A stretch of 50,892 nt of DNA from an uncultured Erysipelotrichaceae bacterium (GTDB taxonomy: Bacteria > Bacillota_I > Bacilli_A > RFN20 > CAG-826). Shown piece by piece: positions 29,748-34,101 of this stretch. Made by a program: the position numbers and the translations under genes. Location of the stretch: the NCBI GenBank assembly GCA_902763555.1, contig CACWSI010000005.1, forward strand, positions 1-50,892. The letters are read 5' to 3'. The notes below the pieces were generated by a model. That model saw nothing but the letters and a program-made list of their open reading frames with translations. It did not search any database and was not told where the DNA came from. Numbering within the stretch: position 1 is the first letter of the stretch; every line of letters begins with the position of its first letter.

Positions 29748-30141
29748 GGGGTCGTATTGGTTTCGACCAGGAATGGTTAGGCTCTAACTGCAGTCGAGTG
29801 ATGACGTTATCATCAAAACAAAAATAACTGACAACAGTTATATGAGAGCTCCAAGAGCTCAACAACTCTGCTTAGCTTAATTTAGCTCCCGACATAGGGT
29901 CCGACGCATGGCGCCGGGCAGAGCATCCCCCAAGGTTTTATCCTTTCACGCTTGGGTAGGATGTCATACCAAAAGGATAGGTGTCTAGAGTCGATAAGTT
30001 ACTAGCGCCGAAATTCCGTTTATCTCGCACGTCCTAGTGAGTCGATATACGAAAGCGTGTTAAATCTTAATATCGTCTAAACTGTAGACGTTATTGAAGA
30101 GCCTTCTTGGGACAGGAGTTCAATTCTCCTCGGCTCCACCA
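29748..30141 (+). ncRNA. ssrA: tmRNA; tag reading frame 29830-29880 encodes (A)DNSYMRAPRAQQLCLA
   Basis: 5' GGGGTCGTATTGGTTTCGAC; 3' T-arm AGGAGTTCAATTCTCCT plus CGGCTCCACCA. The acceptor stem has the G3.U wobble. ATAACT precedes the resume codon GAC. Confidence 0.96.
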
Positions 30142-30252: not shown

Positions 30253-30516
30253 ATGGCTACGATAAACATTAGGGTAGATGATGGATTAAAGAAACAATCA
30301 GAAATGATCTTCGATGCGTTAGGGGTAAGCATGACGGCTGCCATGACTATATTTTTAAAAGCGGTTGTTAGAACCAAAAGCATACCTTTTTCCTTAGAAA
30401 TACCCAATGATGAAACACTTAAAGCATTTAAAGAAGTTGATGATATTTCTTCTGGGAAGGCAAAGGCTAAGAAGTATTCTAGCGCTGCTGAGCTCAAGAA
30501 AGATTTAAAGAAGTAA
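30253..30516 (+). CDS. RelB/DinJ-family antitoxin, no adjacent toxin
   Basis: INIRVD..LK......FDALG.SMTAA..IFLK..V....IPF.L..PN.ET...; a terminator follows immediately. Confidence 0.9.
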   Translation: MATINIRVDDGLKKQSEMIFDALGVSMTAAMTIFLKAVVRTKSIPFSLEIPNDETLKAFKEVDDISSGKAKAKKYSSAAELKKDLKK

Positions 30517-30521
30517 AACAA

Positions 30522-30556
30522 AACCAGGCATCACATCAGCCTGGCTTTGCTTTTTT
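30522..30556. terminator. Terminator between antitoxin and convergent small gene
   Basis: CCAGGC-ATCACATCA-GCCTGG with a T-rich tail. Confidence 0.65.
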
Positions 30557-30568
30557 ATGACTTAATAA

Positions 30569-30737
30569 TTACTTTGCAGCGACCTTCGCGCTTGTGAAGA
30601 CATTGATTTGATTGACCTCAACATTTTTAAGCTTGCTGATCTCAATTTTGAAATCGCCTTCAGGAAGAGCAAAATTACTAAGCACCTGCGATACTCAGCT
30701 TACGAATAAGGTGTGCCTTAAAAACAGACTTTTCCAT
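30569..30737 (-). pseudogene. Small (~55 aa) frameshifted ORF
   Basis: SD AAGGAG plus ATG 30737 gives MEKSVFKAHLIRK... with a stop after 19 codons. The +1 frame continues VSQVLSNFALPEGDFKIEISKLKNVEVNQINVFTSAKVAAK*. Confidence 0.45.
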
Positions 30738-30891
30738 ATAAGGACTCCTTTATGTTATTTTAAGCACTTATAATTCTACCACTCACGAGCGCGTATGTGC
30801 ATTCAAAAGTCTATTTACATTCGCACGTGTTTACATATTTTTGAAAATGGCACATGTATGTAGTTTTGATAATAAGAATATAAATTTTTTG

Positions 30892-30919
30892 TTGCGCATT
30901 TCTTTGATAGTGCTAAACT
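30892..30919 (+). promoter_or_regulatory. Promoter of leader/ABC operon
   Basis: TTGCGC-16 nt-TAAACT with extended -10 TG. Confidence 0.55.
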
Positions 30920-30936
30920 TATAGCCAAGTAAAATT

Positions 30937-30993
30937 ATGAAAAGAGCATTTTATTACTTTTATAGCTACTATTATCCAAGAGGTAATCAATAA
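30937..30993 (+). CDS. Tyr/Phe-rich attenuator leader peptide MKRAFYYFYSYYYPRGNQ
   Basis: 6 Tyr and 2 Phe in nine consecutive codons, upstream of alternative hairpins and an aromatic amino acid ABC transporter. Confidence 0.85.
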   Translation: MKRAFYYFYSYYYPRGNQ

Positions 30994-31104
30994 TCTTGGC
31001 CTTTTAGCTATTAAGGTGTTATTGATTACAAGGACTTAATCAATGGCACTGGTAATAAAGAAAATGAATTATTAATTGGTGCCAAACAGGACACCAATTT
31101 TTTA
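30983..31104 (+). promoter_or_regulatory. Transcription attenuator (alternative pairings 1:2, 2:3, 3:4 and 4:5 terminator)
   Basis: 30983-30994 pairs with 31018-31029; 31016-31028 with 31037-31049; 31044-31053 with 31075-31084. Terminator AATTGGTGCC-AAACA-GGACACCAATT plus TTTT at 31074-31103. Confidence 0.85.
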
Positions 31105-31127
31105 TTTCATTAAGGAGGACAAATAAA

Positions 31128-32108
31128 ATGAAAAAAGAAAAACTATTAACGCTCTTACCACTTATGCTTACACCATTTATGATGACAGGTTGTAACAATG
31201 ACAGCACTGATATTGGTATTCTCCAATTCGGTGAATTCGCAGCCTTAGACGATGCTAGAGAAGGCTTTATTCAAGGCCTTAAAGATGCAGGCTTCGGCGA
31301 TTTAAAATTTGATATTCAAAACGCTAAAGCAACTGCTGCCACAAACTCTACATTAGCCAAAGGTATGGCAAGTAAAAAGCACAAACTCAATTTAGCAATT
31401 GCTACTCCATGTGCGACAGCCTTAAAAGCCGCTCAAGAAAATATCGGTTCTACAACTCCATTATTATTCACTGCTGTGACAGATCCAGTTGGTGCTGGCT
31501 TATTAAAAGACAATAATGCTCCAGAAGGTTTCGTTACTGGTACAAGTGACCTTCAACCAGAAGAAGCATTAGGCAATCAAATTAAATTAACAAAGAAAAT
31601 GATTCCAGATGCCAAAAAGTTAGGTATCTTCTACTGCGCTAATGAACAAAATTCACGTGTGCAAGCTCAAATGGCTTCAGAAGTTGCTAAAGCTGAAGGC
31701 TTAGAAGTTGTTGAAAAGACATGTGTTGATCAATTCACCATCAAAACAAACATCGCTGAATTAGCCGCGGATGTGGATGCGATTTGGATTCCAACTGATA
31801 ACACAGTCGCTAGTAATATGGCAAAAGTCAAAGACGGCTTAGGACAAAATAAAACATTAGTCATCGTTGGTGAAGAAGGTATGCTTGATGGTGGTCAAGT
31901 GACTGTTTCTATCTCCTACTATGATTTAGGTGTTAAGACCGCTGAATTAGCAGCAAAGATCTTAAAAGGTACCGCTGTTAAAGATATCCCAGTCTTCTTC
32001 AACACTGCAGATACATGTTCTTACACATTCAGTAAAAAGAATTTAGAAGATGCTGGTTTCAAAACTGAAGACTTACCATCAGAATTCCCTTGGAAAGAAG
32101 CTAAATAA
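31128..32108 (+). CDS. ABC transporter substrate-binding lipoprotein (TrpX/ABC_sub_bind family, aromatic amino acid)
   Basis: Lipobox MMTGC; IGILQ...ALDDAREGF, AIATP, FTAVTDP, VTGTSD, EQNS, IPTDN, SYYDLG. Confidence 0.88.
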   Translation: MKKEKLLTLLPLMLTPFMMTGCNNDSTDIGILQFGEFAALDDAREGFIQGLKDAGFGDLKFDIQNAKATAATNSTLAKGMASKKHKLNLAIATPCATALKAAQENIGSTTPLLFTAVTDPVGAGLLKDNNAPEGFVTGTSDLQPEEALGNQIKLTKKMIPDAKKLGIFYCANEQNSRVQAQMASEVAKAEGLEVVEKTCVDQFTIKTNIAELAADVDAIWIPTDNTVASNMAKVKDGLGQNKTLVIVGEEGMLDGGQVTVSISYYDLGVKTAELAAKILKGTAVKDIPVFFNTADTCSYTFSKKNLEDAGFKTEDLPSEFPWKEAK

Positions 32109-32110
32109 AC

Positions 32111-33085
32111 ATGGATATTACTGAGCTAATACGTTTGACATTAAGCATGGGTCTTCCATGCTGTCTATTGGCCCTAGGTGTATTCTTAACATTCAGGATA
32201 CTCGATTTCGCTGATATGACCGCTGAAGGAAGTTTGTTAATCGGTGGGGCAGCTTGTGCCTTAATGATTACTAAAAACGTTCCTCCTCTTATTGCGACAT
32301 TTGTCGGTATGCTTGCCGGTGGTGTGTGCGGTTTTATCACTGGATTTCTAAATCGAGTGCTTAAAATACCTAAGCTATTAAGTGGTATTATCACCATGAC
32401 CGCTTCTGGTTCTATTGCCTTATTATTATTTGGCCTAGCCAATGGTAGAATCTTTGCTTCAGAGATTAACGGCATTGATAACTCTAAAACAATCTTTGGC
32501 TTCTTAAATCCAAAGATATTCCATGGTTGGCAACAAGTAATGGTAGTCGCGGTTATCGTCGCCATAGTCTTAGCGGTTGCCTATTTCTTCTTTGGTACTG
32601 AATATGGTATGGCCATACGTGCCACTGGTATCAATGAGAAAATGGCCAAATCACAAGGCATTAATACTACAGTTACCACAATTATATGTGTTTCCATTAG
32701 TAACGCTTTAATCGGCTTAGCAGGCGCTCTTATTGCCCAAATCGATAGTGGCATGAACGCACAAGGTGCGACTGGTTATCTTGTTGTCGGCTTAGCAAGT
32801 ATTCTTATCGGTGAAACATTATTTGGTAAAAGATCGTTTAAAAACGCTCTTATATCCATTAGTTTAGGTTCAATACTATACTTCGCTATCATCATGCTTG
32901 CTACCCAAGTATTCAAGATGCCAACAGACTTAACTAAATTACTATATGCTTTCTTAATCGCTTTAGCGCTTTGCCTTCCAATGATTAAGCAAGCAATCTT
33001 AAAACTTTGGGCACGAATTTCACCGCCTATAAAGAGATTCTTTAAAAAGTTATTTGTTAGAAAGAAAAAGAAGGAGGCTGAATAA
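32111..33085 (+). CDS. ABC transporter permease (TrpY-like)
   Basis: LGVFLTFRILDFADMTAEGS, LLSGI, TEYGMAIRATG, GLASILIGE. Confidence 0.9.
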   Translation: MDITELIRLTLSMGLPCCLLALGVFLTFRILDFADMTAEGSLLIGGAACALMITKNVPPLIATFVGMLAGGVCGFITGFLNRVLKIPKLLSGIITMTASGSIALLLFGLANGRIFASEINGIDNSKTIFGFLNPKIFHGWQQVMVVAVIVAIVLAVAYFFFGTEYGMAIRATGINEKMAKSQGINTTVTTIICVSISNALIGLAGALIAQIDSGMNAQGATGYLVVGLASILIGETLFGKRSFKNALISISLGSILYFAIIMLATQVFKMPTDLTKLLYAFLIALALCLPMIKQAILKLWARISPPIKRFFKKLFVRKKKKEAE

Positions 33086-33087
33086 CT

Positions 33088-34101
33088 ATGTTAGAACTAA
33101 AAAACGTCACTAAAACATTCAACCTCACTGGTAACAAAGAAGACTTAAGAGTGGCCTTGGACCACGTTAATTTACAAATCGAAAGTGGTGAATTTGTCAC
33201 CATTATCGGTAGCAATGGTTCTGGTAAAAGTACCACGATGAATATCCTCACCGGTGTTCTTAAACCAGATTTAGGGCAAGTCTTATTAAATAATGTTGAT
33301 ATCACTAAGATGGATGAACATGAACGTGCAGCCTATTTCGGTCACGTTTTCCAAGATCCAATGATGGGCACATGCGGCGAAATGTCCGTCATTGAAAACT
33401 TAGAAATCGCCTATCGTCGTGGTAGAAAGCATTCTCCATTCCTATGGGGCTTTAGAAAATCTCATAAAAAAGAATTCATTCGTGAATTAAAAAGATTTGA
33501 TTTAGGTTTAGAAGATAGACTTAATCAAAAAGTTGGTGTTATGAGTGGTGGTCAAAGACAAGCTTTAACTTTGTTAATGGCCACAATGCGTAATAAACCA
33601 ACACATAAGACAGTTAAGAAAGACTACATCACATTCTGTGAAAAAGACCATGAAGTCGCTAGAAAAGAATTTGAAAGTGTCTATAAACCAGCGCTCGCGG
33701 AATATAAAACTAATAAGTCCTCTATTAGAAAAGATAAATCCTTATCCTTTAAAGAAAAACGTGAAGCACTAGCAAAAGCCTATGATGAATTTGATAAAAA
33801 GATTCGTCAATTTGACTTAACAAAACAAATTCTTTTATTAGATGAACATACCGCTGCCCTTGATCCAAAGACAGCGAAAAAGGTTTTGGAATTAACAGAT
33901 AAAATCGTTAAAGAAAACCAAATGACAACATTAATGATTACCCACAACATGAAAGATGCTCTGACATATGGTAATAGATTAATTATGTTCCACACTGGTC
34001 ATATTATTTTTGACGTCAGAGGCGAAGAAAAAGCAAAACTCACCGTTGAAGATTTATTAAAAAAATTCGATGAAGCGGATCAAAAAGCGATAGAAATGTA
34101 A
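33088..34101 (+). CDS. ABC transporter ATPase (TrpZ-like) with internal insertion
   Basis: GSNGSGKST, FQDP, MSGGQRQ, LLLDEHTAALDP, ITH. Confidence 0.92.
   Translation: MLELKNVTKTFNLTGNKEDLRVALDHVNLQIESGEFVTIIGSNGSGKSTTMNILTGVLKPDLGQVLLNNVDITKMDEHERAAYFGHVFQDPMMGTCGEMSVIENLEIAYRRGRKHSPFLWGFRKSHKKEFIRELKRFDLGLEDRLNQKVGVMSGGQRQALTLLMATMRNKPTHKTVKKDYITFCEKDHEVARKEFESVYKPALAEYKTNKSSIRKDKSLSFKEKREALAKAYDEFDKKIRQFDLTKQILLLDEHTAALDPKTAKKVLELTDKIVKENQMTTLMITHNMKDALTYGNRLIMFHTGHIIFDVRGEEKAKLTVEDLLKKFDEADQKAIEM

Follow-up and report, generated by a model that had tools for sequence, protein, structure and literature searches.

In the current study, we describe a leader region that precedes an ATP-binding cassette (ABC) importer operon in an uncultured Erysipelotrichaceae bacterium (GenBank assembly GCA_902763555.1, contig CACWSI010000005.1). 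The stretch of DNA that was analysed, hereafter the window, is 50,892 nt long and is contig C5 of a genome of 1,145,068 bp (36% G+C, 84.9% complete); the public sequencing runs that contain it are mostly sheep or bovine gut metagenome records. The leader elements, namely a small open reading frame (sORF) rich in Tyr and Phe codons and a set of alternative RNA helices ending in an intrinsic terminator, precede an operon encoding a substrate-binding protein (SBP), a permease, and an ATPase of the TrpX/CD0873 family. The leader is a real element and is probably a functional Tyr(/Phe) attenuator of a tyrosine-type importer. As to the class of mechanism, we consider it quite likely that the leader is a ribosome-mediated transcription attenuator, responding to charged tRNA-Tyr and secondarily to charged tRNA-Phe, that gates this importer; the detailed mechanistic steps are proposed with lower confidence than the class itself.

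The sORF begins at an ATG at 30937 and ends at a TAA at 30991-30993. Codons 5-13 read F Y Y F Y S Y Y Y, that is, 6 Tyr, 2 Phe, and 1 Ser (8/9 Tyr/Phe), and an earlier interpretation made from the nucleotides alone (the sequence-only reading), which had pointed to an 18-codon sORF of just this composition, was thus confirmed at 30937-30993. The two features are as follows:

30937..30993, plus strand: leader peptide ORF, 18 codons plus TAA, MKRAFYYFYSYYYPRGNQ, without a Shine-Dalgarno sequence (sequence and conservation)
30949..30975, plus strand: regulatory codon run TTT TAT TAC TTT TAT AGC TAC TAT TAT (sequence and masking model)

When all sORFs of 10-60 codons were collected from the six frames of the whole genome, 2 reached 8/9 Tyr/Phe and 9 reached 7/9; the leader sORF is the sole Tyr-dominated one genome-wide, the remaining such sORFs being Phe runs. 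The genome was also searched for other attenuators of the leader-peptide type, and no convincing one emerged. One candidate for a second attenuator, a Thr/Ile/Met-rich sORF on contig C64, was rejected as an off-frame reading of a His/Asp-rich stretch that is protein-coding by eye.

Downstream of the sORF, five segments of the RNA can pair into four mutually exclusive helices, the last of them a U-tailed terminator, and a further hairpin encloses the stop codon:

30983..30994, plus strand: segment 1, GTAATCAATAAT, which includes the stop codon; its partner is segment 2 (12 bp)
31015..31029, plus strand: segment 2, alternative partner of segment 1 or segment 3 (pairing analysis)
31037..31053, plus strand: segment 3, anti-antiterminator when paired with segment 2 and antiterminator when paired with segment 4 (pairing and covariation)
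31075..31103, plus strand: intrinsic terminator consisting of segment 4 (31075-84), a loop, segment 5 (31089-98), and a T-run at 31098-31103 (-9.9 kcal/mol)
30962..31011, plus strand: putative lock/pause hairpin, the loop of which holds segment 1 and the stop codon (minimum free energy structure; -11.5 kcal/mol)

Helix 1:2 (30983-30994 with 31018-29; 12 bp, -14.3 kcal/mol as a hairpin) and helix 2:3 (31015-28 with 31037-50; 14 bp, -14.4 kcal/mol) are isoenergetic, and helix 3:4 (31044-53 with 31075-84; 10 bp including 3 G.U pairs, -11.8 kcal/mol) is slightly stronger than helix 4:5 (31075-83 with 31089-98; 9 bp with one bulged A, -9.9 kcal/mol, followed by six T). The 4:5 hairpin was missing from the list produced by a simple terminator scan, which we assume to be caused by its bulge. 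All of the segment pairings and the U-tailed terminator named in the sequence-only reading exist; for helix 2:3, the pairing stood and the length was revised from 13 bp to 14 bp. The lock hairpin comprises an outer helix (ATAGCTA at 30962-68 with TAGCTAT at 31005-11) and an inner helix (CCAAGA at 30976-81 with TCTTGG at 30994-99), with CC and TTTT behind the latter at 31000-31005. The 236-nt stretch as a whole folds at -54.6 kcal/mol, compared to -40.3 +/- 3.8 kcal/mol for shuffled sequences (z -3.76), and the folding z-scores obtained in the leader analyses range from -3.8 to -4.4.

The upstream regions of orthologous SBP genes, which the sequence-only reading had named as the place to look, revealed a conserved Tyr/Phe sORF as well as a covarying helix 3:4. 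SBP homologues were located in 26/40 related genomes, and 80 further loci were taken from named genomes; 3 loci were dropped as they came without upstream sequence, which left a comparison set of 107 upstream regions, each 150 nt or longer. An sORF with at least 7/9 Tyr/Phe was present in 30/107 of these regions and in 0/107 of their reverse complements, and lowering the threshold to at least 6/9 gave 33 regions, versus 3 on the reverse complement. These carriers are interrelated, with 24 of the 30 coming from the window's own order, and represent 28 distinct leaders. Within the genus, the sORF occurs in all 21 genomes that bear the SBP (20 relatives plus the window's), one relative's leader being cut by a contig end. 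It also occurs in 4/4 genomes of the order that belong to other families and have upstream sequence (L013, L014, L015, and L021, from three families), and in nine loci from named Bacillota (L032, L033, L036, L038, L046, L048, L051, L069, and L091), which include Clostridium aminobutyricum DSM 2634 (L051), Ruminococcus sp. CAG:382, a Halobacteroidaceae metagenome-assembled genome (MAG), and Bacilli MAGs. Nucleotide alignment fails for the leaders of these 13 carriers from beyond the genus, and each nevertheless contains a 17-36-codon ORF with a Tyr/Phe run; in 12/13 of them, a Shine-Dalgarno-like purine run (GGAAGGAG, AAGGAGG, AAAGGAG, etc.) lies 5-10 nt upstream of the ATG. A terminator follows the sORF in 32/33 leaders with at least 6/9 Tyr/Phe, and one locus, L046, has neither the purine run nor the terminator.

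The genus leaders keep the ORF intact (18/18 distinct sequences) and its sole internal indel is of 6 nt, whereas the non-coding part downstream of it carries indels of 1-10 nt; such in-frame-only indels, as judged from the aligned sequences, argue for translation of the sORF. Substitutions inside the codon run exchange Tyr for Phe (or the reverse) or TAT for TAC, and across 25 distinct leader ORFs, Tyr codons number 139 versus 64 Phe codons. The same data bear on an alternative in which the leader is a ligand- or protein-binding RNA switch, that is, a multi-stem aptamer with an OFF platform, the small ORF being incidental. Such a switch would suit the compact multi-stem fold of the untranslated RNA, with its long-range closing helix followed by a terminator, as well as the higher conservation of leader nucleotides relative to the coding gene among relatives and the lack of a Shine-Dalgarno sequence before the sORF in this genus. 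It is at odds, however, with the persistence of the frame, the Tyr/Phe run, and the Shine-Dalgarno-like runs in leaders that are otherwise unalignable, with the in-frame-only indels and the reverse-strand control (0/107), and with the comparison across lineages, in which no conserved unpaired "pocket" was seen beyond the helix arms and U-tract and no Rfam match was obtained. We regard an RNA switch of this kind as unlikely.

Two further observations concern the history of the leader. In the genus relative L027, the leader is 99% identical to that of the window at the nucleotide level and the first 60 nt of the coding sequence are 92% identical, with the SBP at 46% amino acid and 66% nucleotide identity; at other genus loci (L018, L011, L012, L023, L025, and L026), the leader is 75-90% identical and the SBP gene 61-70% identical at the nucleotide level. 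A leader more conserved than its gene suggests, on sequence comparison, recombination, cassette exchange, or diversifying selection on a surface lipoprotein whose regulatory module stays fixed. In addition, a GTGTTATTAC-like word forms a terminator arm in L013, L014, L021, L048, and L069 and is part of segment 2 (31016-31029) in the genus; a word shared by unalignable leaders hints at common descent of the leader class, with the roles of the segments reshuffled.

The alternative helices are also maintained, as evaluated by counting paired cells in an alignment of 18 genus leaders, in which slid controls were 16-69% paired; these sequences are related, and several helices show few two-sided changes. 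Helix 1:2 is paired in 99.5% of cells, with 6/12 pairs varying one-sidedly and one cell unpaired, and helix 2:3 is paired in 99.6%. Helix 3:4 is paired in 94.4% of cells and contains 2 pairs that changed on both sides, in 8 cells (G-C<->A-U in 7 sequences and U-A->C-G in 1), a level reached by 0/500 shuffles. Helix 4:5 is paired in 91.9% of cells, and the lock hairpin in 100% (inner helix) and 84.9% (outer helix). Many of the changes lead to G.U wobbles and so preserve both partners of a shared segment, which is the pattern that a multi-state RNA should leave in such an alignment. An AT-rich spacer with an incidental ORF, chance hairpins, and a constitutive weak terminator might be considered in a genome of 36% G+C, where TAT and TTT codons are common. 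This explanation is scarcely credible given that just 2 such sORFs occur in the six frames of 1.15 Mb, that the arrangement is conserved across families with 0/107 on the reverse strand, and that covariation and folding z-scores of -3.8 to -4.4 are found; the comparative data already contradict it.

The effect of a ribosome was modelled by masking the nucleotides that it would cover and recomputing the equilibrium ensemble. With no ribosome, the ensemble consists of the lock together with helices 2:3 and 4:5 (P(2:3)=0.98, P(4:5)=0.94), the lock hairpin (-11.5 kcal/mol) being what tips untranslated RNA to termination; the additional ATAGCTA/TAGCTAT plus CCAAGA/TCTTGG stem of the sequence-only reading is present, with a terminator probability of 0.94 in untranslated RNA. 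When the ribosome front lies at any position between codon 13 and the stop, it covers segment 1, and the terminator probability is approximately 0.95. A mask at codon 12 raises P(1:2) to 0.46 and lowers P(terminator) to 0.53, or to 0.21 without one closing pair, and only the last Tyr codons (30967-30975) as a stall site would free segment 1 and mask CCAAGA at equilibrium. A clean switch, defined as a terminator probability no higher than 0.25 at some Tyr/Phe codon and no lower than 0.5 at the stop, was obtained in 11/32 leaders. Two of unrelated sequence, L013 and L033, display the full alternation of 1:2 plus 3:4 versus 2:3 plus 4:5 in silico. The folding logic put forward in the sequence-only reading, in which stalling on Tyr/Phe codons leads to read-through and a ribosome at the stop leads to termination, is thus reproduced in full by the model for L013 and L033, but for the window's leader the model reproduces it at one codon position, and across the set in 11/32 leaders. 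We take equilibrium masking as partial support for a ribosome-dependent switch. Segments 1 and 2 are transcribed before segment 3, and kinetics should therefore favour helix 1:2 further.

The proposed mechanism would operate as follows. Transcription would start approximately 10 nt upstream of the sORF, and the stop-straddling hairpin with its U-tract would pause RNA polymerase so that the ribosome catches up. If no ribosome is present, or if one has reached the stop codon (part of segment 1) or its vicinity, segments 2 and 3 would pair, the 4:5 terminator would form, and the transcript would end at about 31103. A ribosome stalled at the last Tyr codons (30967-30975) would melt the CCAAGA arm of the lock and leave segment 1 free to capture the emerging segment 2; segment 3 would then pair with segment 4 as an antiterminator, permitting read-through into the operon. 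Scarcity of tyrosine (and phenylalanine) would in this way turn the importer on. Of this scheme, the sequence elements, how well they are conserved, and their covariation are observed, whereas sORF translation, ribosome stalling, the pause, and the ligand are inferred. The overall claim of the sequence-only reading, a leader-peptide attenuator on an aromatic ABC importer, is supported by the conserved sORF, the retained helices, and the in-frame indels.

The hairpin around the stop codon deserves separate attention. The motif CCAAG...CTTGG, followed by C/T and 4-6 U, straddles the stop in 18/28 distinct leaders, of which 3 come from beyond the genus. This structure is probably a lock for untranslated RNA and, if it resembles the pause hairpin (1:2) of the trp leader, probably also a site at which RNA polymerase pauses until the ribosome has caught up. 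The same region could be read as the site of nascent-peptide arrest of the TnaC type, in which the peptide and free tyrosine would stall the ribosome near Pro-Arg and the stop codon and high tyrosine would induce the operon. In keeping with this idea, Pro-Arg directly follows the Tyr run in many leaders, including those of the distant L021, L032, L048, L069, and L091, and the stop codon lies within a regulatory segment. Except in L091 (CCC AGG), however, these codons are CCAAG, which is a conserved hairpin arm in L021, L032, L048, and the genus, though not in L069, and RNA structure explains these codons equally well or better. Furthermore, in the model, a ribosome held at the stop covers segment 1 and transcription terminates, whereas arrest would have to induce the operon; a long row of one type of codon is a hallmark of starvation sensing; and an organism that lacks the biosynthetic genes should turn up import when the amino acid is scarce rather than when it is in excess. 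Arrest-based sensing is accordingly judged distinctly unlikely, and starvation-dependent stalling on the Tyr/Phe codons remains our preferred account.

A candidate start site for the leader transcript was identified by inspection:

30892..30919, plus strand: probable sigma-A promoter, with -35 TTGCGC (30892-97), a 16-nt spacer, and -10 TAAACT (30914-19) (read from the sequence)

An extended -10 TG occurs at 30911-12 within the 16-nt spacer, and the promoter ends 17 nt upstream of the sORF ATG. The -35/TGn/-10 layout recurs in genus relatives at a constant distance from the ATG, with unrelated sequence farther upstream. A promoter scan did not report the proposed promoter at 30892-30919 and instead gave a weaker TTTACA-16-TATTTT at 30814-41, a site that no RNA contig covers. 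Contigs from RNA libraries (four runs, three studies) start at 30946, 30946, 30958, and 30983, and none spans 30764-30939; these starts are a weak hint of a transcription start near the proposed promoter. Each of the four runs also has one contig that extends across the terminator and reaches the SBP gene. The table of variant positions in the RNA contigs contains 1 in the leader versus 35 listed across 31190-31769.

The genes behind the leader are those of an importer of the TrpX/CD0873 family:

31112..31118, plus strand: Shine-Dalgarno sequence of the SBP gene, AAGGAGG (read from the sequence)
31128..32108, plus strand: lipoprotein SBP, PF04392 (TrpX/CD0873 family), probably tyrosine-binding (Pfam 1.4e-57)
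32111..33085, plus strand: ABC permease, PF02653 (Pfam)
33088..34101, plus strand: ABC ATPase, PF00005 (Pfam)

The best match of the SBP in the PDB is 6HNI (Clostridioides difficile CD0873; 8.1e-44), with the Trp-binding 3LFT and the Phe-binding 3LKV ranking lower. According to the accessible text of the structural study, CD0873 binds tyrosine, and Glu-263 and Tyr-279 explain its preference (PMC6816091); E249 and Y264 of the window's SBP align to these two residues. Against the NCBIfam TrpX equivalog NF041285, the protein scored 221.9 bits, under the cut-off of 390, and by this sequence measure it is a relative of TrpX rather than an equivalog. The sequence-only reading had assigned Tyr and Phe jointly as the substrate; the Tyr part of that assignment stands and the equal share for Phe does not, as tyrosine is the more likely substrate because Tyr codons exceed Phe codons in the leaders (139 versus 64) and CD0873, the closest homologue of solved structure, is a tyrosine binder. 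In the 84.9%-complete genome, chorismate synthase, prephenate dehydrogenase, and prephenate dehydratase (PF01264, PF02153, and PF00800) were not found, with the controls matching in 14/14 genomes, and because these three biosynthetic families were not found, the operon is likely the main tyrosine route of this small-genome rumen organism.

Several points weigh against a ribosome-dependent attenuator that senses tyrosine. Among close relatives, the nucleotides of the ORF are near-invariant, and coding constraint and RNA constraint are therefore inseparable there. No Shine-Dalgarno sequence precedes the sORF in this genus, and its putative 5' untranslated region is approximately 10 nt; for these two reasons, translation of the sORF is something that we infer (SD-like 4-mers precede 54% of the crudely called long ORFs in the genome). 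In the masking model, the switching window is narrow, a ribosome with its A site at about codon 12 and a 12-nt mask being the sole position that lowers the terminator probability; masking at earlier Tyr/Phe codons leaves termination unchanged, and 21/32 leaders are flat at equilibrium. The RNA contigs are uninformative on transcript ends, strand, and termination, the libraries possibly contain DNA, and the upstream spacer is strain-variable. The Glu/Tyr pair of the binding pocket is present in 99/108 aligned SBPs, including three with a Trp-type T-box, and it is therefore consistent with tyrosine binding without discriminating for it. Transcription and translation are reportedly uncoupled in Bacillus subtilis, which would disfavour the mechanism unless a pause restores coupling. 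Finally, one genus relative, L009 (1343-1478), has a deletion of segment 3 and the spacer; it keeps the sORF, segment 2, and the terminator and has no antiterminator partner, and the deletion is either an assembly artefact or a sign of a locus locked OFF.

Control by a T-box is the usual expectation for importers of this kind, and a degenerate or novel T-box-like, tRNA-binding leader was weighed accordingly. Homologous TrpXYZ transporters are T-box controlled, according to the accessible text of PMC9382623, and the genome itself has T-boxes before tyrS and valS, with a further one before a paralogous SBP in the genus. In agreement with the sequence-only reading, however, the Rfam T-box model (RF00230) gave no match in 30700-31200 at E<=10, although the model detects diverged T-boxes at 41-88 bits (L028-L030), and neither a specifier loop nor a T-box bulge motif was seen in the sequence; a T-box-like leader is thus very improbable. 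RF00230 also gave no match in L011-L027 at the gathering score, and finds T-boxes at 41-117 bits elsewhere. The remaining Rfam families gave the leader chance-level miRNA/sRNA matches only (E>0.3), Phe_leader, RF01743, and RF02863 being without a match at E<=10. The T-box of the window organism's tyrS (L111 1317-2528, minus strand) lies at G000:C1:21573-21800 (minus strand) and scores 117 bits. With a T-box on tyrS and a leader peptide on the importer, two RNA mechanisms would, under the attenuator reading, sense the status of Tyr-tRNA. The further suggestion that the leader is a lineage-specific replacement of T-box control was not upheld, since leaders of the same kind occur in other families and in several Bacillota lineages, 0/17 broad loci have a T-box (17 of the 80 broad homologous loci were scanned, at E<=1e-3), and a probable relative from Lactobacillales is already in Rfam.

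That probable relative is RF02863, catalogued as "Enterococcus sRNA_2410", which lies directly upstream of the SBP gene in Enterococcus plantarum (135.8 bits), Alkalibacterium (61.7 bits), and Carnobacterium (47.5 bits, a match that falls under the gathering score of 61):

L108 1148-1390; L104 1051-1287; L084 1235-1407: RF02863 loci (Rfam match, sORF, and terminator)

The first bases of RF02863 overlap an sORF preceded by a Shine-Dalgarno sequence, MTHSINPQLNKAYFSYFR in E. plantarum, and a terminator lies at its end. Likenesses to the window's leader include the sORF (...AYFSYFR), the position before a homologous SBP gene, the terminator end, and an AGCUAC (Ser-Tyr) 5' arm whose partner is a GCUA farther downstream, an arrangement that the outer lock helix also has. 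In contrast, the sORF of RF02863 has 4 Tyr/Phe codons only, and the catalogue entry of the family is for an sRNA gene and states no function. The accessible text of Sinel et al. (PMC5593968) describes an RNA of approximately 195 nt in E. faecium that gives two transcripts on Northern blots, with no function given there. A two-form RNA of about 195 nt fits a terminated attenuator transcript, and RF02863 is probably a cis-acting attenuator rather than a free-standing sRNA gene. By position and architecture, RF02863 and the window's leader are probably relatives, the latter being called a relative and no member because it does not match the RF02863 model.

Among known attenuators, the leader is comparable to the pheA/pheL and pheST leaders of Proteobacteria, which likewise combine an ORF of cognate codons, overlapping alternative helices, and an intrinsic terminator, and in which untranslated RNA terminates. 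Its more than four segments resemble the multi-segment his attenuator of Proteobacteria. It differs from the Proteobacteria leaders in that it is Tyr-dominated (6 Tyr plus 2 Phe), is found in Bacillota, gates an importer where they control biosynthetic or tRNA-ligase genes, and has its stop codon inside the first regulatory segment. In Firmicutes, His leaders are described for the B. cereus group, Peptostreptococcaceae, and Erysipelotrichales (PMC9413887, PMC2965389) and a Leu/phe leader, RF01743, for Lactococcus lactis (PMC2864571); according to the accessible text, they share with the window's leader ribosome-dependent attenuation where T-box or repressor control is missing. They differ from it in sensing His, Leu, or Phe and in controlling biosynthetic operons or hisS paralogues. 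The T-box-controlled TrpXYZ systems of Streptococcus suis and others have the same protein components (PF04392 SBP, PF02653 permease, and ABC ATPase), and their uptake is induced when charged tRNA falls, through a choice between terminator and antiterminator; there, the sensor is a tRNA at the specifier, whereas here it would be a ribosome on Tyr/Phe codons. C. difficile CD0873 (6HNI) is likewise the lipoprotein SBP of an ABC importer and has the Glu and Tyr specificity positions, but its identity to the window's SBP is moderate. The two C. difficile loci scanned, L071 and L093, showed neither a T-box nor a Tyr/Phe sORF of at least 6/9, and the accessible text of the CD0873 paper (PMC6816091) has 0 occurrences each of "riboswitch" and "T-box" and nothing on regulation.

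In the literature searched, which consisted mainly of the main texts of non-subscription articles, we found neither a Tyr-codon leader peptide nor such control of CD0873-type transporters. The mechanism is classical; as far as these searches reach, the Tyr-dominated run, the importer target, and the breadth across Bacillota are new, as is the placement of the stop codon inside segment 1 within the lock/pause hairpin. More tentatively, and at somewhat less than an even chance, the leader may represent a widespread, unrecognised class of Tyr-sensing attenuators on CD0873-type importers across Bacillota, in which a programmed, stop-straddling RNA polymerase pause would restore the coupling of transcription to translation in a phylum with reportedly little of it. 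Such a class may extend over small-genome gut Bacilli, Clostridia, and Halanaerobiales and, in the form of "sRNA_2410", over Enterococcus and other Lactobacillales. If the attenuator reading is true, tyrosine would join the short list of amino acids known to be sensed by leader-peptide attenuation, with an uptake system as the target, and there would be a regulatory argument for naming a large, poorly named family of "TrpX-like" importers as tyrosine (perhaps phenylalanine) transporters. A function would also be offered for an orphan, Northern-validated Enterococcus "sRNA", and the leader would serve as a natural test case for ribosome-dependent attenuation in Bacillota, a phylum in which such control usually falls to T-boxes, riboswitches, and RNA-binding proteins.

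A second SBP in the genus adds to the picture of aromatic amino acid uptake. This paralog, approximately 34% identical to the window's SBP, lies in genus relatives behind a diverged T-box that scores 77, 41, and 88 bits, all under the gathering score of 93:

L028 2568-2776; L029 2508-2674; L030 2513-2722, minus strand: diverged T-boxes (RF00230)

The specifier in L028 and L030 was read as UGG (Trp), and with a Trp-type T-box on the paralogous SBP, aromatic uptake therefore looks split by substrate. Between the T-box, with its terminator, and the SBP start, in a stretch of about 100-150 nt, there is a second small ORF preceded by a Shine-Dalgarno sequence, which ends in ...Arg-Trp-stop in L029 and L030 and reads through in L028; it may constitute a Trp-codon checkpoint in tandem with the T-box.

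Upstream of the leader, the neighbours are a transfer-messenger RNA (tmRNA) gene (29748-30141) and then a RelB-like ORF of 87 amino acids (window 30253-30516, plus strand), which lies beside the tmRNA gene and matches the RelB antitoxin family (PF04221, 2e-15). The sole frame scanned downstream of it (30569-30709, plus strand) gave no Pfam match, and 30517-30760 contains short frames alone on either strand; the RelB-like ORF region may be a mobile-element remnant at the tmRNA site. RNA contigs of relatives part from the window at 30680/30686, as loose ends. On the minus strand, a strong Shine-Dalgarno sequence and an ATG open a frame at 30681-30737 that ends after 19 codons and is possibly a truncated or rearranged divergent gene.

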